Notes: generated from the letters alone by a model not told the origin. Counted from the stretch's first letter, positions 25,109 through 50,470 are shown. The stretch: DNA of 64,000 nucleotides from an uncultured Spirochaetota bacterium (GCA_963768055.1 CAVYGN010000001.1:1568001-1632000); one strand, 5' to 3'. Numbers and translations are program-made.

Positions 25109-27721
25109 ATGCATAAAAATGCCTTTATTCAGAAAATTTATGATAAATTAATTAATAAAGTTTCCCTTTTCAAAAGCGGCTATTTAAAGCTTAAGCGGAA
25201 AAAACTATACGATAATTTGCTTGTTATTTTTTTATATATCGTTTTATCCGTATTCGTACTCAGCGCAAACTTTTTTAAAGGAGAAACGGTAGGCCCGTTT
25301 AATTTCCTCGTTTCTTTTCCCGGATGGTCTTCGCTGAATTATCATCCCGTTGTCGTCGATACTGAGAGGATGGACGCCCTGGACGGATCCATACCCGAGC
25401 AAATAAATTACAAGAATAATCTTTTAAGCGGTAAAATCCCGGTCCTTGACCTTTTTTATTCCGGTAAAATTTTTATACCCAGTTATATAGTAACAATCTT
25501 CGTCGGAACGATCCCTGTCGGATTGTATTTTTCTGAAATTCTTAAACTTGTGGTCTGCGGTTTCGGCGTATTCCTTCTGCTTAGCTTATTTACCCGAAAA
25601 TCAGCCGCTTTTTTCGGCGGCGTCGTTTACATGCTTTGCGGTTTTAACGCTTCCTGGTTTATCGGGGCGCATGTGGACGTATCGATGTGGATACCATGGC
25701 TCTTATGGGCGACAGCGGGCTATCTGATAGAAGAAAAAAAATATTACCTTTTATTTATCACCGCATCGACTGTTTTTATGCTATCCGGGTATTTTCCGAG
25801 CGTCGCGGCGTACGGTTTTTATTGTTTCGGGATCCTGCTGTTATTCTGGAATTTAACTGATTACAAATCGATAAAATCTTTTATAATTAAATTATCGATG
25901 CCTTCGTTATTTATCGTTCTCGGCTTTTTAATAGCTATGCCTACCCTTTCAAGTTATGCAAACCTTATCGCAGGACTTAATCCCCAAACTACTGGAGTGG
26001 ATTTAAGCTGGCGGCATGGAGGCACAAAATTAAGTGTAAATGATCTTTATCTATTTGTCAGGCCTTTCAGGAATATCAAGGTGGAAACATGTGTTTATAC
26101 CGGGATTTTTTCTCTCCTACTGGCAGCCCTGAGTGTTCCGGTTATGATTTTCATGAGAAATAAAAAAATCAGGCACTTTACTATTTTCGGGTTCATCATT
26201 TTTATTTTATCCGTTTTAATCGGTTTCGGGATGATACCCTATGAAATTGTGAGAAATATACCGACCTTTAGTTTTAATAGAGCACAGAGACTTACATCGA
26301 TAATAGGCTTATCCCTTGCAATACTCTCGGGAATAGGCTTTGAAGGCATGCTGTCTATACCGGATTTCCCCTTCTACCCTTCTTTTATTGAAAATTGGAT
26401 TAAAAAGAATCGTATTAGATTAAAAACCTTCGTTCTAATTTTCGCGGCATTTATTTTTATTTTTCAGATTTTCGATCAAAAAAGGATTTTCAGCCATTTT
26501 AACGCTGTAGAGCCTTCTGAATGGTGCTATCCTGAAACAAGATCGATAAAATATTTAAAGGAGCATTTAAGCCCCTTTCAGAATATTATCGCCGACAATT
26601 CCTTCCTTCATTGCGGCGTCATGGGAGGGTACGGTTTAAATGAAATATTCCTGCACAGGTATTATACGCGCAATGAAAAAGATCTTCTGCGCCGGATTGT
26701 TCCGAATGGATTCACATCACCTACGTCGGCTTCATTTCCTGCGGAAGCAATAAATTACGATTCAAATCTATTTCATGCCCTCGGGATCAAATTCATAATC
26801 AGGGGGAAATTCAATAAAATTATTCTTCAGGAACAGCCTGCAAATTCCATAATGGTCCCTTCGGAGCCTCTTCCCGCCTCAAAAATTGTTCAGTATGTCA
26901 ATTTAAAAGAAGACATCAAAAACCTCGATGGAATAATGACCGAATTCGGAACCTACAATGAGCCTTACGCACCTGAGGATGTAAAACTGGTCCTTAAAAA
27001 CAGTTTCGGCGTGATAATCGAAGAAATTGTTGTTGGAAAAGAAAAAATCGAGAATAATAAATGGGCCTATTTTGACTTTAAAAAACGGTTAACTCTCGCA
27101 AAAGGCATATATAAATTTGAAATTCATCTTTATGGTAAAAATTACGGCGGGATTTTCGCTATCTGGAAAACAAGCCAGCCGGCCGATGAAAAAAGTTATC
27201 TTGAAGAAAACGGCAGGAAAACGGATTTCGCCTTAATGTATAAATTATATACAACTAAAAAAGAAGATTCAAACGGATGGATCGTTCATAAAGTTGAAAG
27301 CGGTATCAGGGTCTGGGAAAAACCGGATACCCCGACGGGCGCGTACTATATACCGGACCTTAATGAGAAACCTGAAAATATAAATATTAAAAATTGCGGC
27401 GGCGTTACGGAGGAAAGAGTCGACGCTTATAAGATCAGGATAAATTATAATAAAGACGCCGGCGGATTTATCGTCCTGCCCGACTGGTGCAGAGACGGCT
27501 GGAAGGCTTATATAAACGGCAAGGAGATCAATACCGAAAAATACCTTAAATTTCTTCCCGCTTTTCATGTTCCGGGAAAAACGGAAATTATTTATAAGTT
27601 TCAATATTCAATGATCATTATCTGGCTGTCTTTTGCAGGATTATTGATTTTTATAGGAATTTTATTCCTTTTTATGATGATTAAACATGAAAATCCTCAT
27701 TATTTTAAGCAGAATAATTAA
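25109..27721 (+). CDS. YfhO-like GT-C-fold membrane glycosyltransferase, copy 1
   Basis: Multi-TM N-region (SAAFFGGVVYMLCGF, WIPWLLW, YTGIFSL) and C-terminal GWKAYING motif before a last TM helix. Confidence 0.7.
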   Translation: MHKNAFIQKIYDKLINKVSLFKSGYLKLKRKKLYDNLLVIFLYIVLSVFVLSANFFKGETVGPFNFLVSFPGWSSLNYHPVVVDTERMDALDGSIPEQINYKNNLLSGKIPVLDLFYSGKIFIPSYIVTIFVGTIPVGLYFSEILKLVVCGFGVFLLLSLFTRKSAAFFGGVVYMLCGFNASWFIGAHVDVSMWIPWLLWATAGYLIEEKKYYLLFITASTVFMLSGYFPSVAAYGFYCFGILLLFWNLTDYKSIKSFIIKLSMPSLFIVLGFLIAMPTLSSYANLIAGLNPQTTGVDLSWRHGGTKLSVNDLYLFVRPFRNIKVETCVYTGIFSLLLAALSVPVMIFMRNKKIRHFTIFGFIIFILSVLIGFGMIPYEIVRNIPTFSFNRAQRLTSIIGLSLAILSGIGFEGMLSIPDFPFYPSFIENWIKKNRIRLKTFVLIFAAFIFIFQIFDQKRIFSHFNAVEPSEWCYPETRSIKYLKEHLSPFQNIIADNSFLHCGVMGGYGLNEIFLHRYYTRNEKDLLRRIVPNGFTSPTSASFPAEAINYDSNLFHALGIKFIIRGKFNKIILQEQPANSIMVPSEPLPASKIVQYVNLKEDIKNLDGIMTEFGTYNEPYAPEDVKLVLKNSFGVIIEEIVVGKEKIENNKWAYFDFKKRLTLAKGIYKFEIHLYGKNYGGIFAIWKTSQPADEKSYLEENGRKTDFALMYKLYTTKKEDSNGWIVHKVESGIRVWEKPDTPTGAYYIPDLNEKPENINIKNCGGVTEERVDAYKIRINYNKDAGGFIVLPDWCRDGWKAYINGKEINTEKYLKFLPAFHVPGKTEIIYKFQYSMIIIWLSFAGLLIFIGILFLFMMIKHENPHYFKQNN

Positions 27722-27731
27722 GGAGGGATGG

Positions 27732-28547
27732 ATGTCTTTGCCGAATTTTTTATGTATCGGGACCCAGAGGGGCGGGACAACCTGGCTGTATGAAATGCTT
27801 CGTGTGCATCCGGACATTTATTTACCGGTGCAAAAGGAAATCCATTTTTTTAATAATGATTCCAATTATGATAAAGGCATTGATTGGTACGAAAAGACTT
27901 TCTTTTCAAATACCGAAGGGAAAAAAATAATCGGAGAAATTACCCCTGCATATTTATATATTGAATCCGCCGCTCAAAGAATATATAAAAACTTGGGCAA
28001 AGATATAAAGCTGATAATTATGCTTAGAAATCCTGCTGAAAGAGCGTTTTCGGATTATTGGATGGAATATTTCCGCGGTAATGAAACGTTGTCATTCGAA
28101 GAGGCGATATTAATGGAACCTTACAGAATTTGTAGAAGTTATGAAGAAAAACTTTATTATAGCTATATTAAACGGGGTTTTTATTATGCACAGATAAAAA
28201 ATTATTTCGGATTTTACCCCTCTGGTAACATAAAAATTCTTATATTTGAGGAATTTTTCAAAGACATTCCGAATAACTTGAATGATGTATTGCAGTTTTT
28301 AAATTGTCCTTTAATGAAAATTGATCTAAAAAAAAGTAAATTAAATGCTACTGTTCTCAACTGTAAAAAATACTATAAAGCCGCATATTTAAATAGATCT
28401 TCTGTGAAATTCAAGGATTTAATATTTAGACGCCCTAATTACCCATCTTTAAATACTCGTTATCAAAAAATGCTTAAAAGGCTGTATTTAAACGATATAA
28501 AGAATTTACAGGAATTATTAAATAAAAATTTTTCATTATGGCTTTAA
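27732..28547 (+). CDS. Sulfotransferase (Sulfotransfer_1 type)
   Basis: PNFLCIGTQRGGTTWL (5'-PSB loop), KEIHFF, GEITPAY, LRNPAERAFS (3'-PB). Confidence 0.88.
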   Translation: MSLPNFLCIGTQRGGTTWLYEMLRVHPDIYLPVQKEIHFFNNDSNYDKGIDWYEKTFFSNTEGKKIIGEITPAYLYIESAAQRIYKNLGKDIKLIIMLRNPAERAFSDYWMEYFRGNETLSFEEAILMEPYRICRSYEEKLYYSYIKRGFYYAQIKNYFGFYPSGNIKILIFEEFFKDIPNNLNDVLQFLNCPLMKIDLKKSKLNATVLNCKKYYKAAYLNRSSVKFKDLIFRRPNYPSLNTRYQKMLKRLYLNDIKNLQELLNKNFSLWL

Positions 28548-28561
28548 TGAGGAGGTTTTTT

Positions 28562-31499: not shown

Positions 31500-31513
31500 A
31501 TTGGCATTCTTAA

Positions 31514-31624
31514 GGGCGGTTCCAAAAACTGACATTGTAATTAATAAATGATGTTCTAAAAGTAATAAAACCGCCCTATGGGCATTACCTTGCCGCCTTG
31601 AAAAGGCGGTTTTTAGAAGTGCCC
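31514..31624. mobile_element. MITE copy 1 (111 bp) flanked by TTAA
   Basis: TTAA-GGGCGGTTCCAAAAAC ... GTTTTTAGAAGTGCCC-TTAA; shares CGCCCTATGGGCA(T/C)TACCTTGCCGCCTTGAAAAGGCG core with the copy at 63277-63410. Confidence 0.85.
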
Positions 31625-31659
31625 TTAACTGGTTATTCAATGGAAACGAGCGTTAAATA

Positions 31660-33771: not shown

Positions 33772-33780
33772 GAGGTATAA

Positions 33781-35107: not shown

Positions 35108-35674
35108 ATGCCCTTTTTAGGTACAGACATTCCCGATGTTTTGATATATGAACCGAAAGTCAGCGAGGACGGAAGGGGATATTTTTTCGAAAGTTATAAC
35201 CGCCGCGTTTTCGAAGAAGCGGGGATAAAAAATGAGTTTGTTCAGGACAACCAGTCTTTATCAGGCTTTGGAGTTATCCGGGGGCTTCATTATCAATTGA
35301 ACCCGCATGCACAGGCGAAAATAGTAAGGGTCCTTACCGGGACCGTACTGGATGTTGCCGTCGATATACGCAAAGGTTCGCCCTATTTCGGCCAATGCGT
35401 GTCGGTGGAATTGTCCGGAGAAAACAGGCGCCAGTTATATATACCGCGGGGTTTCGCCCATGGATTCGCGGTTTTGAGCAAAACAGCCGAATTCTTTTAC
35501 AAGTGCGATAATTACTATAATCCGTCTCATGAGGCTGGAATTAATTACAAAGACCCGGAACTCGATATCGATTGGAAAATCGATCCTTCTTTAATCGTAA
35601 TTTCTAAAAAAGACTCGGACCTGCCTCTCCTGGCTGATGCTATGAATAACTTTATCTACGGAGAGGGCCTATGA
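35108..35674 (+). CDS. rfbC: dTDP-4-dehydrorhamnose 3,5-epimerase
   Basis: DGRGYFFES, QDNQS, RGLHYQ, DVAVDIR, GFAHGF, YKCD. Confidence 0.95.
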   Translation: MPFLGTDIPDVLIYEPKVSEDGRGYFFESYNRRVFEEAGIKNEFVQDNQSLSGFGVIRGLHYQLNPHAQAKIVRVLTGTVLDVAVDIRKGSPYFGQCVSVELSGENRRQLYIPRGFAHGFAVLSKTAEFFYKCDNYYNPSHEAGINYKDPELDIDWKIDPSLIVISKKDSDLPLLADAMNNFIYGEGL

Positions 35675-36525
35675 CCGTTCTTGTGACGGGTGCTAACGGG
35701 CAGCTCGGCAGCGAGATCAGGAAACTTTCTGAAAATCTGACAGGCGTTTCTTTTATTTATACGGATGTTGATAACCTCGATATAACGGACCCGTTGTTCC
35801 TCGACTCGTATTTTAAAAAGATACAAGCCGGCATTGTAATAAACTGCGCCGCGTACACGGCGGTGGACAGGGCGGAAACCGAAAAAAAAGCCGCCCATGC
35901 TATAAATTCTCAGTCTTGCGCATACCTGGCCCGCTTATCGGTAAAATATGGCTTCAGGCTGCTGCATATATCGACAGATTTTGTTTTCGACGGCAAAAAA
36001 TCCACCCCGTATATTGAAACCGATAAACCGCATCCCGTTTCGGTTTACGGCCGGACCAAGCTCGAGGGTGAAAAACACATAATATCCGCGGGCGGCAGTT
36101 ATATAATTATAAGAACATCCTGGCTATATTCTTCCATGGGAAATAATTTTGTAAAAACCATCCTGAAGGCGTCCCGTGAAAGGGAAGAGCTCAGGGTTGT
36201 CTACGACCAGACAGGCGGGCCCACATATGCCCGCGATCTCGCGTCGGCGATACTGCAGATACTTCCGGATTTCAAGGCCGGCACAAGGGAAATTTATCAT
36301 TACTCCAACGAGGGCGCCGCATCGTGGTTTGATTTCGCAAAAGCAATTTGCGAATTCGCCCTCGTCAAAACTCCGATCGCCCCGATCCTGACCCGTGATT
36401 ATCCTGCCCCGGCGCGCAGGCCCTCATACAGCGTTTTATCCAAGGAAAAGATAAAACGGGAATACGGGCTGAAAATCCCTTACTGGCGTGATTCCGTTAA
36501 AGACTGCATTAACCTTTTAACGTGA
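35671..36525 (+). CDS. rfbD: dTDP-4-dehydrorhamnose reductase
   Basis: TGANGQLG, AAYTAVD, HISTDFVFDG, YGRTK. Confidence 0.95.
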   Translation: MTVLVTGANGQLGSEIRKLSENLTGVSFIYTDVDNLDITDPLFLDSYFKKIQAGIVINCAAYTAVDRAETEKKAAHAINSQSCAYLARLSVKYGFRLLHISTDFVFDGKKSTPYIETDKPHPVSVYGRTKLEGEKHIISAGGSYIIIRTSWLYSSMGNNFVKTILKASREREELRVVYDQTGGPTYARDLASAILQILPDFKAGTREIYHYSNEGAASWFDFAKAICEFALVKTPIAPILTRDYPAPARRPSYSVLSKEKIKREYGLKIPYWRDSVKDCINLLT

Positions 36526-36534
36526 GGGCAGTTT

Positions 36535-37563
36535 ATGGCAAAATCGAAAAGTTTGAAAACCATACTTATAACAGGCGGAGCCGGATTTATAGGATCAAAT
36601 TTCATTCCCTACTTTCTTGAAAAATACCCGGGATACTTTATCATAAATCTCGATAAGCTTACATACGCCGGAAATCCCGTCAATTTAAAAGAGGTTTCCG
36701 GCAACCCCCGCTACCGATTTGTAAAGGGGGATATCCGCGACAGGAACCTTCTTGACTCCCTTTTTAAAACTTCCGACATAAGAGGGGTTATACATTTCGC
36801 GGCCGAGTCGCATGTCGATAATTCGATCGCCCGCCCGGCCGAATTCATACTGACTAACGTAATGGGGACTTTCAACCTGCTGGAAGCCGCCCGGAATAAC
36901 TGGATGCACAGGCCCTTTTTATATAAGGAAGAATATGCGGGCTGCAGATTCCACCATATTTCGACCGACGAGGTTTACGGAAGCCTGGGTGAAACGGGCT
37001 TATTTACCGAATCGACTCCTTATGCCCCGAATTCCCCGTACAGCGCATCGAAAGCCTCAAGCGATATGCTTGTCAGGGCTTACAACCGGACGTACGGCCT
37101 GGATACGGTCACGACCAATTGTTCCAACAATTACGGCCCCAAGCAGCACATGGAAAAACTTATTCCGACGATTATCAGGAAGGCTTTATTCGGCGCATCC
37201 ATCCCGATTTACGGAGACGGCAAAAATATAAGGGACTGGCTTTATGTCGGGGATCATTGCACCGGAATAGACCTGGCTTTCCATAAGGGCGAACCGGGCG
37301 GGACTTACAACATCGGCGGGCATAACGAAATGACAAATATAGAAATCGCGCTTAAGGTTTGCTCGATCATGGATTCGGAAAAGCCGGCTGGAGACGGAAA
37401 ACCCCGCCGTGAACTTATCTCATATGTCGAAGACCGGGCGGGCCATGACCGGAGATACGCTATTGACGCAAGCAAAATCGAAAACGAATTGGGGTGGAGA
37501 GCAGCGGAAAATTTCAATTCGGGAATCGTTAAAACCGTAAAATGGTATCTTGATAACATTTAA
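36535..37563 (+). CDS. rfbB: dTDP-glucose 4,6-dehydratase
   Basis: TGGAGFIGS, DKLTYAG, AAESHVD, STDEVYG, YSASK, CSNNYGP. Confidence 0.95.
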   Translation: MAKSKSLKTILITGGAGFIGSNFIPYFLEKYPGYFIINLDKLTYAGNPVNLKEVSGNPRYRFVKGDIRDRNLLDSLFKTSDIRGVIHFAAESHVDNSIARPAEFILTNVMGTFNLLEAARNNWMHRPFLYKEEYAGCRFHHISTDEVYGSLGETGLFTESTPYAPNSPYSASKASSDMLVRAYNRTYGLDTVTTNCSNNYGPKQHMEKLIPTIIRKALFGASIPIYGDGKNIRDWLYVGDHCTGIDLAFHKGEPGGTYNIGGHNEMTNIEIALKVCSIMDSEKPAGDGKPRRELISYVEDRAGHDRRYAIDASKIENELGWRAAENFNSGIVKTVKWYLDNI

Positions 37564-37564
37564 A

Positions 37565-39361
37565 TTACCAGGGCTTGAATATGATCCCCCGTTCAAACAT
37601 CAATTCCCTTATTTTATCGACTCCGGTTTCGGTTTCAGCGGTAAGCAGCACCAGATCCGTAGCAATATCCGTATCCGGTTCACCGACCCAGATAATATGT
37701 ATAAGATTTTCATCAAGCACTGTTTTCATGATATCCAGATCGTCCTGCGTCAGCCCGACTGCCGTTATCACGAGTATGATCCCCGCATCCATCATAAGAA
37801 AGGCGACTTCAGCGAGCCGGCGAATGTGCTCTTCCCGGTATTTTTTATGGTCGTGGTTGAGATCCGCATCGACGCCGTAAAGAATATTGCCGATGCCGAG
37901 GAAATATATGAATTTCCCTTCCTGGAACAAGATTTCCTCAAGCCTCTTGGCCAGTTTTTTTTTGCCGACGTCTTTATCCCCGGTGATCACCAGCAATGCG
38001 GATTTCTGGCTGTACCGTTCAGCTCTCTGTACTGAAGGTATGGCGCTCTTTTCCCATTTGTAATTGCGGAGTATTACTTTTTCCCGGACTTCGCTCTGCT
38101 CGTCAGGCAGGCTTTCACGGACTATGCCGCCGCCGGAAATTTCATATGCCTCGACAATAACGAATCTCCCCGTTTCAGGAATATCATTATTCAGGTCGAA
38201 TGCTATAGGCGTTCTCAGGCGGATAATGCATTCCCCCACATCATTCCGGTTGACTTTTTCGGCATTTTCAACGAATGAAAGCGTGGAAGCGTCGATCAGG
38301 CGGGGTATCGACTCGATGCGGCATGGCACTTTCGCCGTCCCCAGCTTGAACAGGTATTCCTTGTTTTTCTCAAGCGGATTTCTTCCCAGCCAGAAGAGAT
38401 TTACTCGCAAGCGCATAGAGACCAGGGGTTTTACCTCGCGGATTTTCGCAATAATTTCACCCCGGGTTACATAAATTTGTTCATCCATTGTAAAACCCGC
38501 TGCATAGCCTGCTTCCAATCCCGCTATACTGGAGCTGCCGGATGCTTCAATGGATTTTATCCTGTTTTTCTTTCCGGACGGATAAAAAACAATTTCATCC
38601 CCTGTCTGTATGCTTCCGGTCTCGATCGTTCCCGCCACGATTCTGCGATTATCTCCGTATTTCGTGAATTTATAGACATCCTGGACCGGCATCCGGAAAG
38701 GCTTGTTTGACCTGTCCTTTTCATTTTGAAAGGAATCCAGAGAATTAAGCAATGTAAGGCCCTCATACCAGGGCATATTAAATCCGGCTGACGCGATATT
38801 ATCGCCGCAAAAACCGCTGACCGGAATAAAGGAATTTGGCCGGATCGATATGCTTTTTAAAAATTCCGAAAATTCTCTTTCAATTTCCCCGAATTTATCC
38901 CGGCTGTAGCCGGCAAGATCCATTTTGTTGACAAGGACGATAACCTGGCGGATGCCGAGCATTGATAAAAGATATCCATGCCTCCTGGAATTTTCTTTAA
39001 TTCCTTCCGCGGCATCGATTACGAGAAGCGCCGCTTCGGCCCTTGAAGCGCCGGTGACCATATTCTTTAAAAATTCGATATGGCCCGGGGCATCGAGAAT
39101 TATATAATTTCTTTTTTCTGTTTTAAAAAAAACACGCGCAGTATCTATGGTTATCCCCTGCGCCTGCTCGTCTTTCAAAGCATCGATCAAAAAAGCGTAT
39201 TCAAACGGTTTTGAATTTCTCTCGCAGTTTGCCCGGACCTGTTCGAGCTTTCCCTGCGGAAGCGAATGAGTGTCCGCCAGAAGTCGGCCGACAATGGTGC
39301 TTTTTCCATGGTCGACATGACCGACGATCACAATATTCATGTTTTCTTTTTCATCTGTCAT
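37565..39361 (-). CDS. cysN: Sulfate adenylyltransferase subunit 1 with a degenerate C-terminal APS-kinase domain
   Basis: [25 protein letters not shown]-terminal [12 protein letters not shown]...DAG. Confidence 0.88.
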
Positions 39362-39378
39362 TATAGATCTCCTGATCC

Positions 39379-40260
39379 TTACATGTAGCCGTCTCGCCTC
39401 AGCGTCTCGAGGCCGCCGCAGTCATCCCTGTCCTGGGCGCGTCCCGAACGTTCGGCAATATCGGCAAACTTCCCGGTTTTTAATTCGGCAATAATTTCAG
39501 CCGGATTCCTTGCATCCGAATCGACCGGAAAAGTGCAGGGATAGCAGCCGAGCGAACGGTAGCGTTTTCCTTCCCCCTGGTTATAATAGAGTGAAACCGT
39601 TGGTATTTTTTCCCTTTCGATGTATTCCCAGATATTGACCTCCGTCCAATCCAATAAAGGATGAATTCGAAGGTGCGTTCCCGGGGCAAAGTCCGTCTTG
39701 AACTGGTTCCAGAATTCGGGGGGCTGGTCCCCGATCTTCCAGATATTTTCCTTATCGCGGGGTGAAAAATAACGTTCTTTCGACCGGGATCCTTCCTCAT
39801 CGGCCCGCACACCGACAATTACTCCCGTAAAAGCCCCCGAACCTTTTTCCAGGTCGTACCGCCCTGTCTGCAGGTTCAGCCTGTAGCGTTTCCCGCTTCC
39901 ATTGAGAGTATTCCGGAGGGCTGCCGTTTTAAGATTACTGCAGCAGGTGATCCTGTCGACATTTCCGTCGGGAAAGGTTTCTTTTTTCATCAGGGCTTCT
40001 TCATTTTTACCGAAAATCATTGTGAGCCGGTATTCCATTGCCAATCTATCGCGGTATGCGATCATTTCAGGGATTTTATAAGTCGTGTCGATATGAACAA
40101 GGGGAAACGGCACATGCCCGAAAAACGCTTTCCTTGTAAGCCATAAAAGCGTTGTGCTGTCTTTACCGATAGACCAGAGCATGCAGAGATTCTTAAAATT
40201 CGCATAGGCTTCCCGGATAATATGTATGCTTAAATTTTCCAATTTATCCAGATGATTCAT
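39379..40260 (-). CDS. cysD: Sulfate adenylyltransferase subunit 2
   Basis: [42 protein letters not shown]. Confidence 0.92.
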
Positions 40261-40881
40261 TCATGGCTCCTGTTTTTCCATAAAACTTAAAAAATGATTT
40301 TTTTCAAGATAACTAAAAATCAAATCCGACGCGTTTTCCGGCGTTTCGCTGCCCGAATCTATGATGATCTCGGGTTTTTTGGGTTCTTCATATGGGTCTG
40401 TAATTCCTGTGAAATTTTTGAGCTCGCCTTTCCTCGCTTTTTTATACAACCCTTTAGGGTCCCTCGATTCGCAAATATCGAGTGAACATTTTACATAGAT
40501 TTCAATAAATTCGCCATTTTCGACCAGTTTTCTCACTTTATCGCGGTCTTCCCGGTAAGGGGAAATAAAAGCGGTTATTACTATTATACCGGCGTCGATA
40601 AAAAGTTTCGACACTTCGCCGATCCGCCTGATATTTTCTTCGCGGTTTAACTGATCGAAGCCCAGGTCCCGGTTTAGCCCGCACCGGATGTTGTCTCCGT
40701 CGAGGAGATATGTATGGATTCCGCGTTTGTACAATTTCCGGTCTAAAAACCGGGCTATAGTCGACTTGCCGCTGGCGGACAGGCCGGTAAACCATATGAT
40801 CGCGGAAGAATGGCCGTTCAGCCTGCGTCTCTCTTCTTTCACAACGGATAACTGATAAGGATATAAATTGTTTTCAGACAT
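40261..40881 (-). CDS. cysC: Adenylyl-sulfate (APS) kinase
   Basis: WFTGLSASGKST, LDGDNIR, FISPYR, RDPKGLY, FTGITDPYE. Confidence 0.95.
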   Translation of the reverse strand: MSENNLYPYQLSVVKEERRRLNGHSSAIIWFTGLSASGKSTIARFLDRKLYKRGIHTYLLDGDNIRCGLNRDLGFDQLNREENIRRIGEVSKLFIDAGIIVITAFISPYREDRDKVRKLVENGEFIEIYVKCSLDICESRDPKGLYKKARKGELKNFTGITDPYEEPKKPEIIIDSGSETPENASDLIFSYLEKNHFLSFMEKQEP

Positions 40882-40882
40882 T

Positions 40883-41647
40883 TCAGCTTATCACTCCTTT
40901 AATATACTCTTTTGTCAATTCCTGTTTCGGGTTCTCGAAAATCTGCCCGGCTGTACCGGATTCCACAAGCTCGCCCATATACATAAAGATGACATGATCC
41001 GCTATTCTTTTTGCCTGCCTCAAAATATGTGTTACGAATACAACGGTGTAGTTTTCTTTCAATTTAAGGAGGGTTTGTTCGATATAACGGCTTGAAAAAG
41101 GGTCCAGAGATGATGTGGGTTCGTCCCCCAGAATAATTTCGGGTTCTACGGCAAGACCCCTGGCCAGGCAAAGCCTCTGCTGCTGGCCCAGAGAAAGTCT
41201 TGACGCGGGTGAGTGGAGCCTTTCTTTTACCTCTTCCCAGAGATTTACCATTCTCAGATATTTTTCAACTATTCCATTAACGGATTTTCTGCCTCTCAAG
41301 CCATGGATTCTCGGGCCGTAGGCTATATTATCAAATATCGACATCGGCAATGGCGAGGGTTTTTGAAGTAAAAGTCCCATTTTTTTCCTGATCCCGGTAA
41401 CATCCGCATGGGGGTCAAGAACATTTTCACCGTCGACAATGATTTCCCCGTTTATTGTAACATTTTCTTCCAGATCGATCAAACGGTTAAATGATTTAAG
41501 CAGGGTGGATTTACCGCAGCCGGAAGGACCGATGATCACTGTCACCTTCTTATCCGGAATAACGAGAGATATGTCTTTCAACGCTTCAATTTTGCCGAAT
41601 TTAACGTTCAAATGGTTTACTATAATATGGGATCGATTTTCAGTCAT
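40883..41647 (-). CDS. pstB: PstB-family ABC ATPase
   Basis: GPSGCGKST, SIFDNIAYGPR, LSLGQQQRLCLAR, DEPTSSLDP. Confidence 0.85.
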   Translation of the reverse strand: MTENRSHIIVNHLNVKFGKIEALKDISLVIPDKKVTVIIGPSGCGKSTLLKSFNRLIDLEENVTINGEIIVDGENVLDPHADVTGIRKKMGLLLQKPSPLPMSIFDNIAYGPRIHGLRGRKSVNGIVEKYLRMVNLWEEVKERLHSPASRLSLGQQQRLCLARGLAVEPEIILGDEPTSSLDPFSSRYIEQTLLKLKENYTVVFVTHILRQAKRIADHVIFMYMGELVESGTAGQIFENPKQELTKEYIKGVIS

Positions 41648-41659
41648 ATACTCCGCACC

Positions 41660-42511
41660 TTATTTGATCGTATTTTTAGCCAATTTCAAATTTAGAATTC
41701 GTATAATTACATTGATAATAAATATAAAAACGGTAAGTATTAAAGCGGCTGAATAAGCCCTGTTCTGAACCTCCGGGTATGGCGTCCCCAATTGGAAAAA
41801 TATTGCAAGCGGCAGGGTGGCGGCAGGCGAAAAAAGGGAATCCGGAATGTTATCCGTAAATCCGGCCGTATATAAAACTGAAGCTGCGTCTCCCACTCCC
41901 CTTCCGAAAGCGATTATTATAGCTGTAAGCAGCCCCGGCAAAGCCTGCCTTATAACAACCCTGAAAGCCGTTTCGAACCGGGTCGCGCCCAGGGCGAAGG
42001 ATGCACAGGTTAATTCCTTTGAAACAAGGGCAACGACTTCATCAAGCATCCTGGCGAGGATAGGCAGGACTAAAAGAGCTACGGTTACTATTCCTCCCAG
42101 AAGGGAGACTTTCAAACCCAGATAAAGCATTAAAGAAAATCCGAAAGCCCCGTAAACAATGGATGGAATACCCCATAAAACATCGAAGCAAAAGCGGGTT
42201 ATTTGAACAAGCAATGAATTTTTTTTTGCGAAAATATGGAGGTAAAGGATTATAGGCAGGGAAATCAGCAATCCAAGAATTACTCCACCCAATCCGATAT
42301 AAGCCGATCCTATTATCGCATTTAAAATCCCGCCCTTCCTGCCGGTATAAAAGCCTCCCTGCGGTGTTTTAAGGATCATATCCCAGTTAAAACCCTTGAT
42401 CCCTTTTGACAGTATTGTAAAAAGGATCATGCAGAGAAGTGCAAGAATGATAAAAGAACAAAACCGCATTAAAAAAACAAAAATCCTTTCTTCCAATTTT
42501 CTCATGTTCAT
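41660..42511 (-). CDS. pstA: PstA-family ABC permease
   Basis: GGILNAIIGS, GIPSIVYG, ALGATR, ATLPL. Confidence 0.85.
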   Translation of the reverse strand: MNMRKLEERIFVFLMRFCSFIILALLCMILFTILSKGIKGFNWDMILKTPQGGFYTGRKGGILNAIIGSAYIGLGGVILGLLISLPIILYLHIFAKKNSLLVQITRFCFDVLWGIPSIVYGAFGFSLMLYLGLKVSLLGGIVTVALLVLPILARMLDEVVALVSKELTCASFALGATRFETAFRVVIRQALPGLLTAIIIAFGRGVGDAASVLYTAGFTDNIPDSLFSPAATLPLAIFFQLGTPYPEVQNRAYSAALILTVFIFIINVIIRILNLKLAKNTIK

Positions 42512-43422
42512 AAACGGAGCCCTTTTTCAATTCTTAAAAGCATCCATCGGGAAACAACGTTGAAAAAGATCACTACGGCAAGTAAAATTAGCGCCGCCAG
42601 CATCAGTGCGGAATCGAAAAGCGGGATTGAAAGCATCTCCCCGTAACTGTTTGCAATCAGTGCGGGCAGGGGATATACGGGATCGAATATCGAATGGGGG
42701 ATCTTTGCCACATTTCCGGCAACCATTAAAACAGCCATAGTCTCGCCGAAAGCCCTCGACATTGCAAGCACAACTCCGGCCACTATGCCCGGAAAATTTT
42801 TCCTCAGGATTACGTTTTTAACTGTTTCCCATTTGGTAGCGCCGACGGCTAATGAAGCCATCCTGATTTCTACCGGCACTGTGCGGAATATTTCAACGAA
42901 TATATTCACCATTACAGGTATGATCATCACCGCAAGCACGATAGACGCCGATAACATGGAGTATCCGGAAACATTGATCCCCAGATAAGGGGCTATAGTC
43001 TCTTTGACCCATGGAACGATCACTAAGACCCCCCACAATCCGAAAACGACCGATGGAATTCCCGCTAAAAGATCGACCATAGGAATGAAAAAATTCCGCA
43101 ATGTTTTGGATGCATATTCCGAAAGATATATCCCGGTTAAAAGGCATACCGGAACCGCCAGAATAAGGGCGCCGAAAGTTACCCAGACAGTGCCGGTTAT
43201 AAAAGGCAGAAAACCGAACTTTCCTTTCATCGGATGCCAATTTTCAGAAAAGAACAATTTTGAAAGAGGATTTTCACGCAGGATCGGCAGCGATTTTACT
43301 AAAAGCAGTATAAATATGAAAATTAACAGGAACCAGCAAAAAAAGACCAGGAGCCTTGCGCTGTTTTCAAATAAACGGTCTTTTAAAATCCTGAAGTATG
43401 GCGCCATTTTCAAGCCCGTCAA
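42508..43422 (-). CDS. pstC: PstC-family ABC permease
   Basis: YLSEYA, LAGIPSVVFGLWG, GATKWET, SRAFGETMAV. Confidence 0.85.
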   Translation of the reverse strand: MTGLKMAPYFRILKDRLFENSARLLVFFCWFLLIFIFILLLVKSLPILRENPLSKLFFSENWHPMKGKFGFLPFITGTVWVTFGALILAVPVCLLTGIYLSEYASKTLRNFFIPMVDLLAGIPSVVFGLWGVLVIVPWVKETIAPYLGINVSGYSMLSASIVLAVMIIPVMVNIFVEIFRTVPVEIRMASLAVGATKWETVKNVILRKNFPGIVAGVVLAMSRAFGETMAVLMVAGNVAKIPHSIFDPVYPLPALIANSYGEMLSIPLFDSALMLAALILLAVVIFFNVVSRWMLLRIEKGLRL

Positions 43423-44363
43423 AAGCCGATTTTCTTCATCTGTTCCTGAATCCTGGATTCCTCAATAGGAACGTAACCGGTTTCTTCGATATACTTCCTT
43501 CCCTGTGTCAGCGCCCACTTTACGAATTCTATAACAATCTTTTTGTGGGGCCTGCCCTTGAAGGCAAAATACAGGTCCCGGGCCGGAGGCGAAGGATATT
43601 TGTTTTCAGAGATCGCTTTTGTCAATTCAAAAAGACTATGATAAAAATCCTCATCCGCATCGATTTTCCCGTTCCCGTTTATATCGATCGGCAGTACGGC
43701 TATTCCCGGGATCGGCTGCCCTGTTCTGAAGTCGTAAGCAAAACTTATATTGTTATACCCGATGCCGAAGGTGTCTTTTTTTACCGCTTCAACAACCCCC
43801 GGATCGCCGAAAACCCCGACCCCTTTCAAATCCTCCTGATTTTTTCCAAGGTATGCCGCCCAGGTGCTGGCTGCTCCGCATGAATCGGAACGGGTATAAA
43901 TATTGATAGTGTCGTTTTTATTGTATCTGTAAAGTTCTTCCCAGCGCGACACCGAACCTTCTATGAAAATTTGTTTGAACTGCTTCTTTTTTAAACCCGA
44001 TTCCCGGATTTTCCCCAGCAACGGATTATTCACATTTACCGTACATACAACCGCATCGCGGGCCATGGCGATCCAGGTTATACCCTTATCTTCTTCGATC
44101 TTCGAAATTTCCCTGGATATGCTCCCGATGTCCGCCATTCCGGTAAGCGTATCCACCATACCCTTTCCTGCCCCGGCCGCCGATATATCGAATTTTACAT
44201 CCGGGTGGATTTTTTTGAATTCTTCCGCCCATTTGACTTCCATAGGGTACAGGGCAAAAGCCCCGGAAATTGTGATTGTTTTTTCCGGAGAACCGCCGCT
44301 GCCGCACGAACATACAATCATTGCAAAAAATGTAAGGAATACGGCCCGATAAAATTTACTCAT
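43419..44363 (-). CDS. PstS-family substrate-binding lipoprotein with atypical ligand residues (substrate uncertain)
   Basis: Lipoprotein-like signal (IVCSC); PBP2 fold motifs ISGAFALYP, GAGKG, ADIGSISR, RSDSCGA, IGY, YPSPPARDLY. Confidence 0.8.
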   Translation of the reverse strand: MSKFYRAVFLTFFAMIVCSCGSGGSPEKTITISGAFALYPMEVKWAEEFKKIHPDVKFDISAAGAGKGMVDTLTGMADIGSISREISKIEEDKGITWIAMARDAVVCTVNVNNPLLGKIRESGLKKKQFKQIFIEGSVSRWEELYRYNKNDTINIYTRSDSCGAASTWAAYLGKNQEDLKGVGVFGDPGVVEAVKKDTFGIGYNNISFAYDFRTGQPIPGIAVLPIDINGNGKIDADEDFYHSLFELTKAISENKYPSPPARDLYFAFKGRPHKKIVIEFVKWALTQGRKYIEETGYVPIEESRIQEQMKKIGF

Positions 44364-44388
44364 ATATACCTCAAAAATTAAGATTATG

Positions 44389-44793
44389 CTAGATAAAATC
44401 ATGAAGGCTTAAATTCTCCAGCCGGGCAGATATATAATCCCTGATATCTTTCATAACTGCAAGGACTTTTTTTTCATTCTCAATCGGGGTATGCTCAAAA
44501 AAATAGGTGCTGACGGACTCGGTCGGCGCTAGTGCGCCGTCCATTAACCTGATAACCTGGGCCAGTGAAATATCCTTCGGATCTCTGGCAAGCTTATAGC
44601 CGCCGCTGGAACCCCTTTTGGTCTTTATGATTGAATTTTGCTTTAACAGCAGGAATAACTGCTCCAGGTATTTTTTTGAAATATGGTATTGCCGGCAGAT
44701 AGCCTCGATTTTGACATATTCATGTTCGTCTTGATTGCGCGCTATATACAGCAGGGCCAGCAGGGAATATTCGCTTTTTGTCGTAAGCTTCAT
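44389..44793 (-). CDS. Rrf2-family transcriptional regulator (CymR-like; no IscR cysteine triad)
   Basis: MKLTTKSEY, ISKKYLEQL, RGSSGGYKLA, IRLMDG. Confidence 0.9.
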   Translation of the reverse strand: MKLTTKSEYSLLALLYIARNQDEHEYVKIEAICRQYHISKKYLEQLFLLLKQNSIIKTKRGSSGGYKLARDPKDISLAQVIRLMDGALAPTESVSTYFFEHTPIENEKKVLAVMKDIRDYISARLENLSLHDFI

Positions 44794-44803
44794 ACCTTGT
44801 CCG

Positions 44804-44849
44804 TATACAAGTTTAGTTATAGTATAGGCAAGGTATAGAAGCCTGTCAA
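44804..44849 (-). promoter_or_regulatory. Promoter of the Rrf2-pst-cys unit with overlapping candidate operator
   Basis: Minus strand TTGACA (44849-44844)-17 nt-TATACT (44826-44821); imperfect palindrome TATACTAT-N7-CTTGTATA at 44826-44804. Confidence 0.7.
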
Positions 44850-44869
44850 GTTAGGAAAGCATATCGCTA

Positions 44870-45520
44870 TCAGCCTATCCAGAGTCCTTCTATGCGAACC
44901 TGAAATCCGTCTTTGATTTTGAATAAAGCGTTAACAAGGCCGCAATGACGCCACTGGAGCATGCAATATCGCGGAAGGAAATAATACCTTTTCCCGATTT
45001 CCAGATTTACCCGGCTGTTCCTTACAATCCCTTCGTAAGCGGTCGTATTATAATACCCGATGTTGATGCCTCTTTCCCTGGCCTGTAGCGGCCCGGTTAC
45101 ATTCCAGACAACCGTTCCGTTAAAATAATCGGGTTCATCGACGATAACACCCGCATGAGTGACCGGGCATCCGCAGGAAATCCAGGCGGGTCTTCCGTAA
45201 ATTACATCCCCTCTTTTTAGCTTCAATTTTTCCACATTTGTAGGATTAAAAAGGATGATCGTTTCTCTCGGGCCAAGATCCTCTTTAAAGGTCTCCAGAA
45301 CAAAATCGTATTCCCGTTCCAGATTATCTTTCCAGCTTATGTTATTTAAAGATTCCTCAATCCGGCCGGTTCTGTCCGATTTTTCTTCATTAAATATGCA
45401 TCTTTCAAGTAATTCCGAATTATTCGAAGCGGAATCAGCCAATTCATTACAGGTTTTAAATCCGCAAATTCCGCAGTTTTTCCCCGGCAGTTTGAATTCA
45501 CTGTTTTGATCCATATTCAT
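44870..45520 (-). CDS. Fe-S-binding protein (N-terminal four-Cys domain plus Cys/His-rich C-terminal domain)
   Basis: LPGKNCGICGFKTC...C; SCGCPVTH; YCMLQWRHCG. Confidence 0.75.
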   Translation of the reverse strand: MNMDQNSEFKLPGKNCGICGFKTCNELADSASNNSELLERCIFNEEKSDRTGRIEESLNNISWKDNLEREYDFVLETFKEDLGPRETIILFNPTNVEKLKLKRGDVIYGRPAWISCGCPVTHAGVIVDEPDYFNGTVVWNVTGPLQARERGINIGYYNTTAYEGIVRNSRVNLEIGKRYYFLPRYCMLQWRHCGLVNALFKIKDGFQVRIEGLWIG

Positions 45521-46215
45521 TCCCCTCTATAAAAAATATTCGAATCCAGCGGCCTCAGGACTCCATGATGCGCCTCTTTGCCGATCTCTTTCTTGCCTAC
45601 GCATATCGTGCAGGTGCCTACCGGAGGATTGCCTTTAAGCAGAATCGGATAGTGGAGGTTTTCAACATCCATGATCTTTTGCGAAACATAACCGATATTG
45701 ATTCCATGAAGGGCGTCGCTTTCTATTACAGGGACCGAGGCGGTTTCCTCTATTGTAGCGCGAAATACTTCACGCTCCGCCTGTGAAACCAGATCTATCT
45801 TTGTAACGACGGCAATATCGGCCAGGGATAGCATGGGACCGATCTTCCTCGGCAGGTTCATGCCGCTGGTCGCTTCTATGACGACAATTCCGAGGGCATG
45901 GTCGATATAAGGCGAACAGCGCAGGCACAATCCGGCCGTTTCCACGATCAGGATATCGGAAGACTCATTGACAGCCCATTTGATAGCGTCGCCCAGAACA
46001 ATGACATTGCAGTGGTCGGGGCAAAGATCGCCGGAATATACCTTCTTTGTCGGGATTCCGAATTCCTGATGGATAATAGAATCTTCATCCGCAAATTGCA
46101 CGTCTATTTTAAGATAACTGACCCTGAGATTTTCTTTCTGCAATTTTTTAATAACCTGTTTGATGACGGTTGTTTTACCGCTGGTAGGCGGCCCTGCGAA
46201 AATAGCTGCTTTCAT
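45517..46215 (-). CDS. CobW/HypB/UreG-like P-loop GTPase
   Basis: AGPPTSGKT, KID, LCPDHC, VETAGLCLRCSP, TKID, C-terminal CTICVG. Confidence 0.8.
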   Translation of the reverse strand: MKAAIFAGPPTSGKTTVIKQVIKKLQKENLRVSYLKIDVQFADEDSIIHQEFGIPTKKVYSGDLCPDHCNVIVLGDAIKWAVNESSDILIVETAGLCLRCSPYIDHALGIVVIEATSGMNLPRKIGPMLSLADIAVVTKIDLVSQAEREVFRATIEETASVPVIESDALHGINIGYVSQKIMDVENLHYPILLKGNPPVGTCTICVGKKEIGKEAHHGVLRPLDSNIFYRGE

Positions 46216-47036
46216 TGTATGTTTTCCCCCTTTGACATACTATATCCGAATGCTATGAGCCTCTCATTCAGCATATCTTCAGTCAATCTTTCTCCATTGC
46301 GGATCTGTTTTCGGAAATATAGTATAATATCGTCCAGTTTTTTGATCTCTTCCGCAACCCTGAGTTCTTCATCATGGGCCATTATCAGCTGCTGCATAGC
46401 GCCGTTTTTCATAACGACACGGTAATCCGAAAGCAGGGCTATTCTCGGGTCATGCGTGACAAAAATAAATATTTTTTCATACTTTTTAAGAAGCTCAAGG
46501 GCCTTGGTCCGGTGTATTCCCGCATTCTCGATTTCATCCAGCAGTATGATCGGAGAATTACCTATTATTACGGCATCCGCGATGAGAAGGGCCCGGGTCT
46601 GGCCTCCCGAAAGCTCCGTCATTTTATTGTGGACCTCTATGGGTTCTCCGGTCAGCTGGTTTGAAAAATCCAGTGTTTCCTCGATTATCGAATCCGGCCT
46701 CAATGTCTTCCTTATCCGCGCATGTTTCGTTAAAAAGTCGCTGACATTCAAATCTGAAAGAAAATTAGTATGCTGGGTTATGAGGGCGATCGGATGGAGG
46801 GAAGGTTCAAGCGTTCTGCTGTTCGCTGTTCTCTCGCCGTTGATAAAAATCTTCCGTCGCGTCGGTGTGTTGTCGTTTGCAAAGAGTTCGATGTCGTTGA
46901 TCAAGGTGGTTTTTCCCGACCCCGTAGGTCCGACAATACTGATAATGTCGCCCATTTTTAAAGTGATTTCAGCGATCTTGTCCGGTTCGCCTTTTTTGCC
47001 GATTCCGCCGATAATCGTAAGCGATTGAATTTCCAT
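46212..47036 (-). CDS. Stand-alone ABC-type ATPase (no adjacent cognate permease)
   Basis: GPTGSGKT, LSGGQ, ILLDEIE, VTHD. Confidence 0.82.
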   Translation of the reverse strand: MEIQSLTIIGGIGKKGEPDKIAEITLKMGDIISIVGPTGSGKTTLINDIELFANDNTPTRRKIFINGERTANSRTLEPSLHPIALITQHTNFLSDLNVSDFLTKHARIRKTLRPDSIIEETLDFSNQLTGEPIEVHNKMTELSGGQTRALLIADAVIIGNSPIILLDEIENAGIHRTKALELLKKYEKIFIFVTHDPRIALLSDYRVVMKNGAMQQLIMAHDEELRVAEEIKKLDDIILYFRKQIRNGERLTEDMLNERLIAFGYSMSKGENIQ

Positions 47037-47080
47037 AGTTATCTCCCCTATATTAAAATATTCAATACTGAAATTTTATT

Positions 47081-48238: not shown

Positions 48239-48264
48239 GATTTTCTCTCTATAAAAAAATAATA

Positions 48265-48320
48265 ATTGTATATAAAGTCCATAGACAATATATATTATAT
48301 CAAATCCGATGTTTTGTCAA
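48265..48320 (-). promoter_or_regulatory. Promoter and candidate Rrf2 operator for the desulfurase-ATPase-GTPase-FeS unit
   Basis: Minus strand TTGACA (48320-48315)-17 nt-TAATAT; downstream palindrome ATTGTCTA-N9-TATACAAT (48289-48265). Confidence 0.55.
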
Positions 48321-48436
48321 TAATTATTTTAAAATTATTTTAAAAGATTGTTTTACTTATTTAATTTCAAATTATATAATATTTAATCATTCCCGAATTA
48401 AATATACGAAAATCAAAAAATCATTAAGGATTCAGC

Positions 48437-49480
48437 ATGGAACAAAAATTAGATAAAAAATGTATGTTCGTCCTCGGCATGCACCGGAGCGGGACTTCGC
48501 TTGTAATGGGCGCATTAAATAAAATGGGCGTTTATCTGGGCAATGATTTGTTAAAACCTACTGCGGACAATCCGAAAGGTTATTTTGAAAATCAAAATCT
48601 GGTCGATATCGATGAGAAAATATTATCCTGTTATAATTCATCATGGGATGATTTATTGATCCTCGATAACGATTTTGCAAAAAATGAAAAGTTCGAACAG
48701 ATATTGATCGATATAAAACAATTTATTGAAAAGGAATTTGCCGGCATTCCTGTTTTCGGATTGAAGGATCCCCGATTGTGCAGGCTTCTTCCATTTTGGG
48801 ACAGTGTTTTGACAAAAATGAAAATACAGGAATATTTTATAATACCCCTGCGCAATCCCCTTGAAATAGCCGCCTCCCTTGAAAATAGAGATGGATTCAG
48901 CCTGGAAAAATCTTTTATTCTCTGGATGAATCACATGTTTGAAGCTGAATTATATACAAGAGGAAAGAACCGTATTTTTATAAATTATGACTACCTGCTT
49001 AAGCAGCCGGAAACCGCTGTCGAATCTATTATAAAAAAATTAAATATCGATTATTTAACGACTTACCGGCAAATGAAATCCGAATTGGATGATTTATTTG
49101 ATCCGGACCTGAAACATTTTAATATGCCGGATATAAGGGGCGATAAACGGCTTATTGAACTTGTCCATGAATTTCATATTTCTTTACTTAATTTGTCGCA
49201 CGACGATATGTCCGAAAAGGAATTGATTAAAATAAATGAACAAAGGGAAAGATATTATAAACAGCACCGTTTTTTTTATAACAGGGATTTGGTAGATTTA
49301 TTGAACTTATTGAAAGAAACCAAGATCATTAATCATAATTTGACTGTTGAATTATGGAATACAAACAGCCTGTTGCAGGAAAAAGAAAAAATAATAGATG
49401 AAATTTATAATTCAAGAGGCTGGAAATTAATTACAAAATACCGGGAAATAAAGCTAAAGATTTTTCCGAAACATGGTTAA
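48437..49480 (+). CDS. Sulfotransferase-family protein with coiled-coil tail
   Basis: VLGMHRSGTS, NPKGYFE, LKDPRLC, RNPLEIAASL; C-terminal YNSRGWK motif seen in glycan-locus proteins. Confidence 0.78.
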   Translation: MEQKLDKKCMFVLGMHRSGTSLVMGALNKMGVYLGNDLLKPTADNPKGYFENQNLVDIDEKILSCYNSSWDDLLILDNDFAKNEKFEQILIDIKQFIEKEFAGIPVFGLKDPRLCRLLPFWDSVLTKMKIQEYFIIPLRNPLEIAASLENRDGFSLEKSFILWMNHMFEAELYTRGKNRIFINYDYLLKQPETAVESIIKKLNIDYLTTYRQMKSELDDLFDPDLKHFNMPDIRGDKRLIELVHEFHISLLNLSHDDMSEKELIKINEQRERYYKQHRFFYNRDLVDLLNLLKETKIINHNLTVELWNTNSLLQEKEKIIDEIYNSRGWKLITKYREIKLKIFPKHG

Positions 49481-50458: not shown

Positions 50459-50470
50459 GGACTTGAAAAT

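Follow-up and report, generated by a model that had tools for sequence, protein, structure and literature searches.

An eight-gene operon within a stretch of 64,000 nucleotides (nt) of DNA from an uncultured Spirochaetota bacterium (GCA_963768055.1, CAVYGN010000001.1:1568001-1632000), hereafter the window, joins an ATP-binding cassette (ABC) transporter of the Pst type to the sulfate-activation genes cysC, cysD and cysN behind a regulator of the Rrf2 family. The importer probably, though by no means certainly, carries sulfate, which would make the operon a unit for both sulfate uptake and sulfate activation. We infer this ligand from sequence, and the assignment is supported by the chemistry of the binding pocket together with a gene context that recurs in phylogenetically dispersed genomes.

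In the proposed route, a lipoprotein receptor derived from S-type PstS would capture sulfate, a fully ionised tetrahedral oxyanion, and pass it to a channel of the PstC/PstA type that retains two pore arginines, with a PstB-type ATPase driving transport. CysD and CysN would turn the imported sulfate into adenosine 5'-phosphosulfate (APS) and CysC would turn APS into 3'-phosphoadenosine 5'-phosphosulfate (PAPS), which would most probably be used by the sulfotransferase or sulfotransferases of the surrounding glycan-synthesis region. A cluster-less Rrf2 protein of the CymR type would probably repress the operon through an inverted repeat overlapping the -10 box. The operon runs head to tail on the minus strand from 44793 to 37565, and its elements are listed below in that order, preceded by two upstream features.

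44821..44849, minus strand: sigma-70-like promoter TTGACA-17-TATACT, 5' of the Rrf2 gene, matching the consensus at 11 of 12 positions
44792..44836, minus strand: inverted repeat ATACCTTG-N29-CAAGGTAT, a candidate Rrf2 operator, with 8-nt arms that are 100% complementary
44389..44793, minus strand: Rrf2-family regulator, 134 amino acids (aa) (PF02082, E 3.6e-29; rrf2_super, 111 vs 73.3)
43419..44363, minus strand: PstS-derived substrate-binding lipoprotein, 314 aa, the proposed sulfate receptor (PBP_like_2 match, motif alignment, AlphaFold2 model)
42508..43422, minus strand: PstC-type permease (TIGR02138, 276.3 vs cut-off 196.45)
41660..42511, minus strand: PstA-type permease (TIGR00974, 199 vs cut-off 193.45, barely above)
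40883..41647, minus strand: PstB-type ATPase (TIGR00972, 328.7 vs cut-off 343.2, just under)
40261..40881, minus strand: CysC, APS kinase (PF01583, E 3.3e-70; NF003013, 284.7 vs 163)
39379..40260, minus strand: CysD, small subunit of sulfate adenylyltransferase (NF003587, 336.5 vs 195)
37565..39361, minus strand: CysN, GTPase subunit, 598 aa, with a degenerate APS-kinase-like domain at its C-terminus (TIGR02034, 339.4 vs 336.1)

Along this order the intergenic spacings are 25, -4, -4, 12, 1, 0 and 17 nt, with the start of the PstS-like gene taken at 44363, as in the database copy of the protein (P0001, 314 aa); the mechanically called open reading frame (ORF) starts at 44402. The promoter ends 28 nt 5' of the Rrf2 start codon and ranks first among 40 promoter-like sites in 37000-48500, where shuffled sequences gave 22.8 +/- 5.0 sites. 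From this arrangement we infer that the eight genes are co-transcribed. Profile scans with Pfam and NCBIfam covered 57 non-nested ORFs of at least 120 aa in the window (12 + 45, of which 15 of the 45 were rescanned at a laxer threshold), and among these no PhoU, Sbp/CysP, CysTWA or SulP domain was found. An earlier note on this DNA had described a single-strand gene order with gaps of 25 bp or less and some overlaps, a consensus promoter 5' of the Rrf2 gene and a window free of phoU, CysPUWA and SulP, and all three points are borne out by the ORF coordinates (with two overlaps of 4 nt each), the site ranking and the scans. No tRNA or Rfam family was found in the window, and hence no riboswitch.

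The binding protein matches PBP_like_2 (PF12849) with 98.7 bits against a cut-off of 27, and falls below the curated PstS cut-offs of NCBIfam (TIGR02136, 103.1 vs 206.6; TIGR00975, 65.7 vs 205). Its AlphaFold model, with a mean predicted local distance difference test (pLDDT) score of 90.4, has the two-lobe fold of PstS. In a Foldseek comparison with the PDB, the first 47 of the 50 rows listed contain only phosphate-binding proteins, PstS or DING, with 12-22% identity, PstS structures being the best matches with a target-normalised template-modelling (TM) score of up to 0.82. No Sbp, ModA or TupA structure occurs among those 50 rows, and convergence of the receptor on one of these folds was rejected on that ground; the TupA and ModA models of NCBIfam also gave no match. 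The closest solved relatives are of the S-type, namely Clostridium perfringens PBP-1 (4gd5/4q8r, E 6e-18) and Synechocystis Sll0540, and the receptor is, by its alignments, a derivative of S-type PstS.

Pocket residues are numbered here according to P0001, with positions mapped from alignments to S-type and D-type PstS structures. The SGSTSVGP segment of solved PstS proteins reads SGAFALYP in the window protein, S11-T12-S13 of PBP-1 being aligned with A35-F36-A37, the GSSAG segment reads GAGKG (G64-A65-G66-K67-G68), and RSDGSGT or REDGSGT reads RSDSCGA (R158-S-D160-S-C162-G163-A164). The place of the low-barrier Asp of D-type PstS is taken by S83, as in all S-type proteins, with R84 next to it. 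The substitutions that the earlier note had read by eye are real with respect to solved PstS proteins and are traits of a whole family: across 120 homologues of 46-80% identity, S33, G34, A35, A37, Y39, P40, G64 to G68, S83, R158, D160, G163 and A164 do not vary, conservation is at least 90% at R84 and C162, and position 36 is aromatic (Phe, Trp or Tyr).

The significance of these exchanges follows from S-type PstS. In a 2026 structural study (PMC13614923), Ser13/Thr131 of PBP-1, which correspond to Thr17/Thr148 of SphX, are proposed to take up the proton of HPO4(2-), the exchange T17A abolished phosphate binding by SphX, and six hydroxyl side chains contact phosphate in that protein. Aligned to PBP-1, both proton-acceptor positions are alanine in P0001 (Ala37 and Ala164), without exception in the 120 homologues. 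When the motifs are matched by hand to the contacts given for SphX in that study, SphX itself standing outside the alignments, five of the six phosphate-contacting hydroxyls are replaced (A35, A37, A65, C162 and A164) and only Ser83 is kept. An invariant Lys67 and the aromatic residue at position 36 have been gained.

A pocket with no proton acceptor, fewer hydrogen-bond donors and an additional lysine would fit a fully ionised anion such as sulfate. Since the S-type ancestor already had no acidic residue at this site, the decisive change would be the loss of the Ser/Thr proton acceptors and not the loss of an Asp. Sbp binds sulfate without charged side chains. The site of the window receptor, unlike that of Sbp, contains two arginines and one lysine (Arg84, Arg158 and the new invariant Lys67), so it is not a site built from backbone NH groups only.

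The remaining components are of the ordinary Pst type. Aligned to E. coli PstC (9k3s_B), the RAxGE motif of the PstC-type permease reads RAFGE, with Arg237 and Glu241 kept, while the corresponding motif of the PstA-type permease, aligned to E. coli PstA (9k3x_A), reads RGVGD, with Arg220 kept and Glu224 replaced by Asp. These pore residues (PstA Arg220, PstC Arg237/Glu241) are said, in the accessible text of PMC12976172, to set phosphate specificity in E. coli. Judged by alignment, the retained residues neither support nor exclude sulfate, and they are the strongest point in favour of a transporter that still carries phosphate. The sulfate permeases of the SulT family are remote from the operon proteins, as the NCBIfam models for CysT (41.8 vs 246.1), CysW (25 vs 329.1) and CysA (133.8 vs 342.75, from PstB) were scored far below their cut-offs, and the Sbp/CysP models found no match among the operon proteins.

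The three enzymes that follow form a route from sulfate to PAPS. CysC keeps the catalytic P-loop GLSASGKST and the DGDN motif. The C-terminal domain of CysN (37565-38080, the last third of the gene) is 31% identical to the neighbouring CysC, but GLSASGKST has become GDKDVGKKK and LDGDNI has become LGIGNI, so that the P-loop Ser/Thr and both Asp residues of DGDN are gone. This degeneracy is common to all 120 CysN homologues, which are of about 600 aa, with LGIGN[VIL]L in 111 of the 120, and the domain is probably non-catalytic and perhaps nucleotide-sensing. Such homologues bear the database names 'bifunctional CysN/CysC' or 'adenylyl-sulfate kinase'. The closest relatives of the window CysN, except for one at 85%, are about 64% identical and come from mixed anaerobes.

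Searched in full, a set of 1.84 billion cluster representatives yielded 3042 relatives of the receptor at E<=1e-3, 860 at 1e-10 and 167 at 1e-30. Most full-length representatives of about 40% identity or more keep the motif set, which fades at lower identity, and a few distant ones (e.g., P0170, P0184 and P0259) carry the canonical Ser/Thr pattern. The subfamily is found in Bacteroidota, several candidate phyla and archaea of the anaerobic methanotrophic (ANME)/Methanoperedens groups, with Bacteroidales, Lentimicrobiaceae, Draconibacterium, Ratteibacteria, Methanolobus zinderi and Methanoperedens among the named close relatives. The source names of these close relatives are all phosphate-binding or merely substrate-binding, as are the cluster names in the ESM Atlas.

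Gene context was examined in the best-scoring 80 of 565 confirmed relatives from a scan of genome contigs, mostly Bacteroidota metagenome bins; L028, L044, L076 and L080, which have no intact PstS-like ORF, were dropped to leave 76 loci, many of them on short contigs. Neighbouring ORFs were called and clustered, and annotation covered those of at least 100 aa, namely 67 cluster representatives (clusters occurring in at least two loci within five genes) and 135 singletons within three genes.

In these loci the transporter is generally complete, PstC being present in 65/76, PstA in 62/76, PstB in 58/76 and the full S-C-A-B block in 56/76. At least one sulfur enzyme accompanies it in 12 of the 76 loci, from four phyla, comprising CysH (8), CysD (5), CysN (4), sulfite reductase (5), CobA (5), CysG (4), CysK (3), Sat (1) and DsrE (1), the representative CysH exceeding the APS-reductase cut-off (257.2 vs 235.3). 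Seventeen loci have an Rrf2 gene, which in 15 of them lies within two genes upstream, and 25 loci have either a sulfur enzyme or Rrf2. Some of the arrangements resemble whole pathways: one (L069) reads Rrf2-Sir-CobA-CysG-CysH-CysD-CysN-porin-PstS-C-A-B, three Mucilaginibacter loci read Sir-CobA-CysG-CysH-porin-PstSCAB, four others (L046, L047, L058 and L065) read PstSCAB-CysH-CysD(-CysN), and a Phycisphaerae locus (L060) reads PstSCAB-Sat. The partner routes differ, with APS reductase and no CysC in some loci, CysC and no CysH in the window, and Sat in the Phycisphaerae locus, so the only outside substrate that they share is sulfate. PhoU occurs in none of the 76 loci, that is, in none of the cluster representatives or singletons annotated, and among the annotated ORFs no further sulfate transporter was seen.

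An outer-membrane channel lies beside the system in 42 loci (Alginate_exp type in 25, Porin_O_P type in 18), and a LuxR-type response regulator with a kinase in 14, all of them Bacteroidota (L003, L004, L008, L009, L012, L020, L021, L023, L041, L042, L051, L062, L064 and L070). There, a small histidine kinase of about 315 aa and a regulator of the LuxR/NarL type precede the system and replace Rrf2, often with a barrel of the Alginate_exp type present.

The sulfur-linked loci do not form one clade. In a quick maximum-likelihood tree of the 76 locus proteins, the window protein and three distant canonical-motif representatives, their distribution corresponds to 6 label changes for sulfur enzymes and 5 for sulfur enzymes plus Rrf2, or at least 4 and at least 5 when only starred branches are trusted. 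They belong to Bacteroidota, Ignavibacteriota, Planctomycetota and Eisenbacteria, and Rrf2 genes also accompany the system in bins labelled Bacillota, Aminicenantes, Omnitrophota, WOR-3 and Fidelibacterota. The subfamily is split from the three canonical-motif relatives by a long branch with a Shimodaira-Hasegawa-like approximate likelihood ratio test (SH-aLRT) value of 99 that carries a long-branch warning, and the window protein lies on a long branch of its own (0.98) next to sequences from ANME-2, Methanoperedens and one further archaeon, with a support of 84 that is not starred. The earlier note had proposed a distinct Pst-derived subfamily, which pipelines would label as phosphate transporters and whose members should be located with cys genes or Rrf2 rather than phoU; the half-cut-off PstS score and the separating branch, the names given by databases, and the counts of 12 and 17 loci against none agree with it on each point.

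The regulator of the window is an Rrf2 protein whose subtype models all remain below cut-off (IscR, 77.6 vs 207.55; CymR, 75.5 vs 195). Its translation contains a single Cys and no triad of Fe-S ligands, so an IscR-type cluster is not possible, and the protein appears CymR-like in type and cluster-less. CymR of Bacillus is an Rrf2 regulator of cysteine metabolism and sulfur genes and has no Fe-S Cys ligands. The likeness of the two lies in an Rrf2 fold without these ligands and in CymR being the second-best specific NCBIfam model after IscR, while the score far under the CymR cut-off marks the difference. The inverted repeat ATACCTTG-N29-CAAGGTAT contains an inner, imperfect TATAC/GTATA pair, extends over the -10 box as far as the Rrf2 start codon, and is a reasonable candidate for the Rrf2 operator. 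Upstream of the Rrf2 gene (8567) in L022, the interval from a TTGACA promoter to the Rrf2 start holds a perfect inverted repeat, TTAGTCGA-N9-TCGACTAA, which is likely to be the operator of that branch; L080 and L071 resemble it by eye, and L057 has TTGTCTAT-N7-ATAGACAA. A shared operator was sought across loci and given up as not definable, since the window repeat differs from those of L022, L080, L071 and L057. A TTGACA element lies within 110 nt of the Rrf2 start in 8 of 18 full-length upstream regions (the window and 7 loci).

Several observations weigh against a sulfate importer. The receptor retains Arg84, Arg158 and Asp160 of the phosphate site, PstC and PstA exceed the phosphate 'equivalog' cut-offs of NCBIfam, and the pore Arg pair tied to phosphate specificity in E. 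coli, as far as the accessible text of that work goes, is retained as well. The loci used for context are a top-scoring subset of the relatives and come mostly from metagenome bins; within the DNA covered, 51 of the 76 show neither sulfur enzyme nor Rrf2, 14 carry the uncharacterised two-component pair instead, and in 18 the adjoining porin is of the 'phosphate-selective' Porin_O_P family. The inverted repeat of the window is also unlike those 5' of the Rrf2 genes in other loci.

The alternative that survives best is an unlikely but still serious one, in which the ligand is another fully ionised or larger oxyanion (thiosulfate, sulfite, selenate, molybdate or tungstate) and sulfate is at most secondary. 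The exchange of Ser/Thr for Ala, Phe/Trp/Tyr and Cys removes hydrogen-bond donors and may alter the size of the pocket, the conserved Cys162 and the aromatic position 36 might accommodate thiosulfate with its soft terminal sulfur, and E. coli CysPUWA carries both sulfate and thiosulfate according to the accessible part of a review (PMC5840216). However, the substrates of CysDN, Sat and CysC are sulfate or APS, the annotated neighbours show no recurring genes of the CysM type or for selenium, phosphite, arsenic or the cofactors of molybdenum and tungsten, and the profile and listed structural matches offer no ModA, TupA or Sbp relationship. It is possible that thiosulfate is a co-substrate alongside sulfate.

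Improbable, in our assessment, is a low-affinity or specialised S-type Pst system that still imports phosphate, with the adjacency of cys genes reflecting something besides the supply of substrate, such as phosphate/ATP economy or chance. Homology throughout the system, the unbroken run of phosphate-binding proteins in the first 47 of the 50 listed structural matches, the PstC and PstA scores, the equivalents of Arg220 and Arg237 and the Porin_O_P neighbours would all be expected of such a system. It is opposed by the replacement of both proposed proton acceptors by Ala, where T17A alone abolished phosphate binding by SphX (PMC13614923), by a receptor at half the PstS cut-off with PhoU in none of 76 neighbourhoods, and by repeated insertion into complete sulfate-reduction operons of several phyla, which is hard to explain otherwise. 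Least credible is a receptor with mainly a sensory or other non-transport role, or a recent mosaic in which transporter and cys genes are functionally uncoupled, because, although a subfamily member in L043 stands without PstCAB and 14 loci pair the system with two-component proteins, 56 of 76 loci hold the full S-C-A-B block and the window genes overlap or abut (<=25 nt) in a way typical of translational coupling. In L043 itself (8070-12557, Bacteroidota), three ORFs (450, 162 and 462 aa) come after the PstS-like gene, and those of 450 and 462 aa have no Pfam match.

For the proposed sulfate importer and the activation enzymes, the surroundings of the operon indicate where the product may go. 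On one side the operon borders dTDP-rhamnose genes (35108-37563) and many genes for glycosyltransferases, aminotransferases and methyltransferases, and on its other flank lie an ABC-2 exporter pair and more glycosyltransferases. Three features of this region concern PAPS and glycan export.

27687..28547, plus strand: gene for a PAPS-dependent sulfotransferase (PF00685 Sulfotransfer_1, E 7.1e-20, 71.9 bits vs 22)
48437..49480, plus strand: possible second sulfotransferase, a weak match (Sulfotransfer_3, E 1.3e-3, 19.5 bits, below the cut-off of 27, over profile positions 3-213 of 216)
49679-51274: ABC-2 polysaccharide exporter pair (ABC2_membrane and ABC_tran), after the weak sulfotransferase ORF

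Neither cysH nor sulfite reductase was found among the window ORFs scanned. As the operon ends at PAPS and enzymes that use PAPS are nearby, it would seem to supply the synthesis of a sulfated surface glycan, and PAPS from the operon probably feeds sulfation by the sulfotransferase or sulfotransferases of the region, rather than or besides cysteine synthesis; a cysH elsewhere in the genome, which is possible, would also permit assimilation. Copies of CysD, CysN and CysC that make PAPS for sulfotransferases acting on glycans or glycolipids are established in the NodPQ-NodH system of rhizobia and the CysDNC-Stf0 system of mycobacteria. The window operon resembles both in this pairing; neither of those clusters is known to include a dedicated transporter or an Rrf2 regulator.

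Other features of the window stand apart from these questions. The G+C content is 0.33-0.39 in the glycan stretches 11587-20000 and 26000-34000, against 0.43-0.49 in the pst-cys operon and its other surroundings, and one edge of the glycan stretches bears a truncated DDE transposase (11587-12297) and a PIN-domain gene (12538-12948), which suggests an acquired or fast-evolving island. ORFs of 870 aa (25109-27721) and 572 aa (29257-30975), neither with a Pfam family, flank the sulfotransferase and a methyltransferase; they share a very weak DNA_meth_N match at similar positions and may be paralogues. Four minus-strand genes lie directly 5' of the promoter and encode NifS (47081-48238), an orphan ABC ATPase (46212-47036), a GTPase resembling CobW/HypB (45517-46215) and a protein of 216 aa bearing an Fe-S motif at its N-terminus (44870-45520). 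This four-gene set is found again in L043 near Rrf2, CysK and the subfamily PstS, and may have a role in sulfur mobilisation or cluster assembly. A second cysteine desulfurase (388 aa) lies beside a three-domain NifU (322 aa) at 5599-7757, giving two NifS-type genes in the window, which also encodes a ClpA/B-type ATPase and SppA. These two proteins, NifU and the type of promoter point to a bacterial genome.

Among known transporters, the window system is closest to S-type PstS (PBP-1, SphX and Sll0540) with the PstCAB permease (PhoT family, TCDB 3.A.1.7). The two share fold, domain order, the S83-R84 pair at the D-type Asp position, the R-x-D motif, recognisable PstC, PstA and PstB partners and conserved pore arginines. 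They differ in that the window receptor has replaced five of six contact hydroxyls, both proton acceptors included, has gained Lys67 and the aromatic residue 36, fails the curated PstS cut-offs and is linked to Rrf2 and cys genes instead of phoU. With the SulT systems (Sbp/CysP-CysTWA, TCDB 3.A.1.6) the proposed importer would have in common ATP-driven, receptor-dependent sulfate import beside cysDN/cysH, but the two are not homologous at family level, given the scores for CysT, CysW and CysA and the want of any Sbp/CysP match.

The closest conceptual precedent is CysP of B. subtilis, a sulfate permease in the PiT family of phosphate transporters that was recognised, according to the accessible part of the review cited above (PMC5840216), by its position in a cys operon and its loss of phosphate-critical residues. 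There, too, a phosphate-transporter lineage has turned to sulfate; CysP, however, is a secondary carrier of unrelated fold whose function was shown experimentally. The accessible part of the same review lists five families of sulfate transporters, SulT, SulP, CysP (of the PiT family), DASS and CysZ, with none of the Pst type among them, and that of a study of sulfate assimilation in ANME (PMC6286981) mentions only SulP and DASS candidates. Among the matches listed by full-text literature searches, which extended to neither subscription-only papers nor supplements, no description was found of a Pst-type sulfate transporter or of the SGAFALYP/GAGKG/RSDSCGA motif set. That the subfamily defined by SGA[FWY]ALYP, GAGKG and RSDxCGA forms a sixth class of sulfate importers in prokaryotes, derived from Pst, which arose by stripping the proton-accepting hydroxyls from S-type PstS and is widespread in anaerobic Bacteroidota, candidate phyla and ANME/Methanoperedens, is put forward as an evenly balanced proposition.

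Outside model Proteobacteria, no other step of sulfur assimilation has been charted as poorly as sulfate uptake. A class of this kind, if real, would supply the transporter that is missing from the cys operons of Sphingobacteriales, Bacteroidales and several uncultured phyla. A considerable fraction of the 'pstSCAB' genes taken as markers of phosphorus stress in metagenomic and metatranscriptomic data would then report sulfur acquisition, and a systematic mis-annotation that affects readings of phosphorus limitation from environmental omics would be corrected. The subfamily would also constitute a natural experiment in the conversion of a phosphate site to a sulfate site, with proton acceptors removed and a lysine added. 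For the uncultured anaerobe itself, the local link to a sulfotransferase points to sulfated glycans, and in lineages like that of the window the system would be dedicated to the supply of PAPS for sulfated surface glycans.

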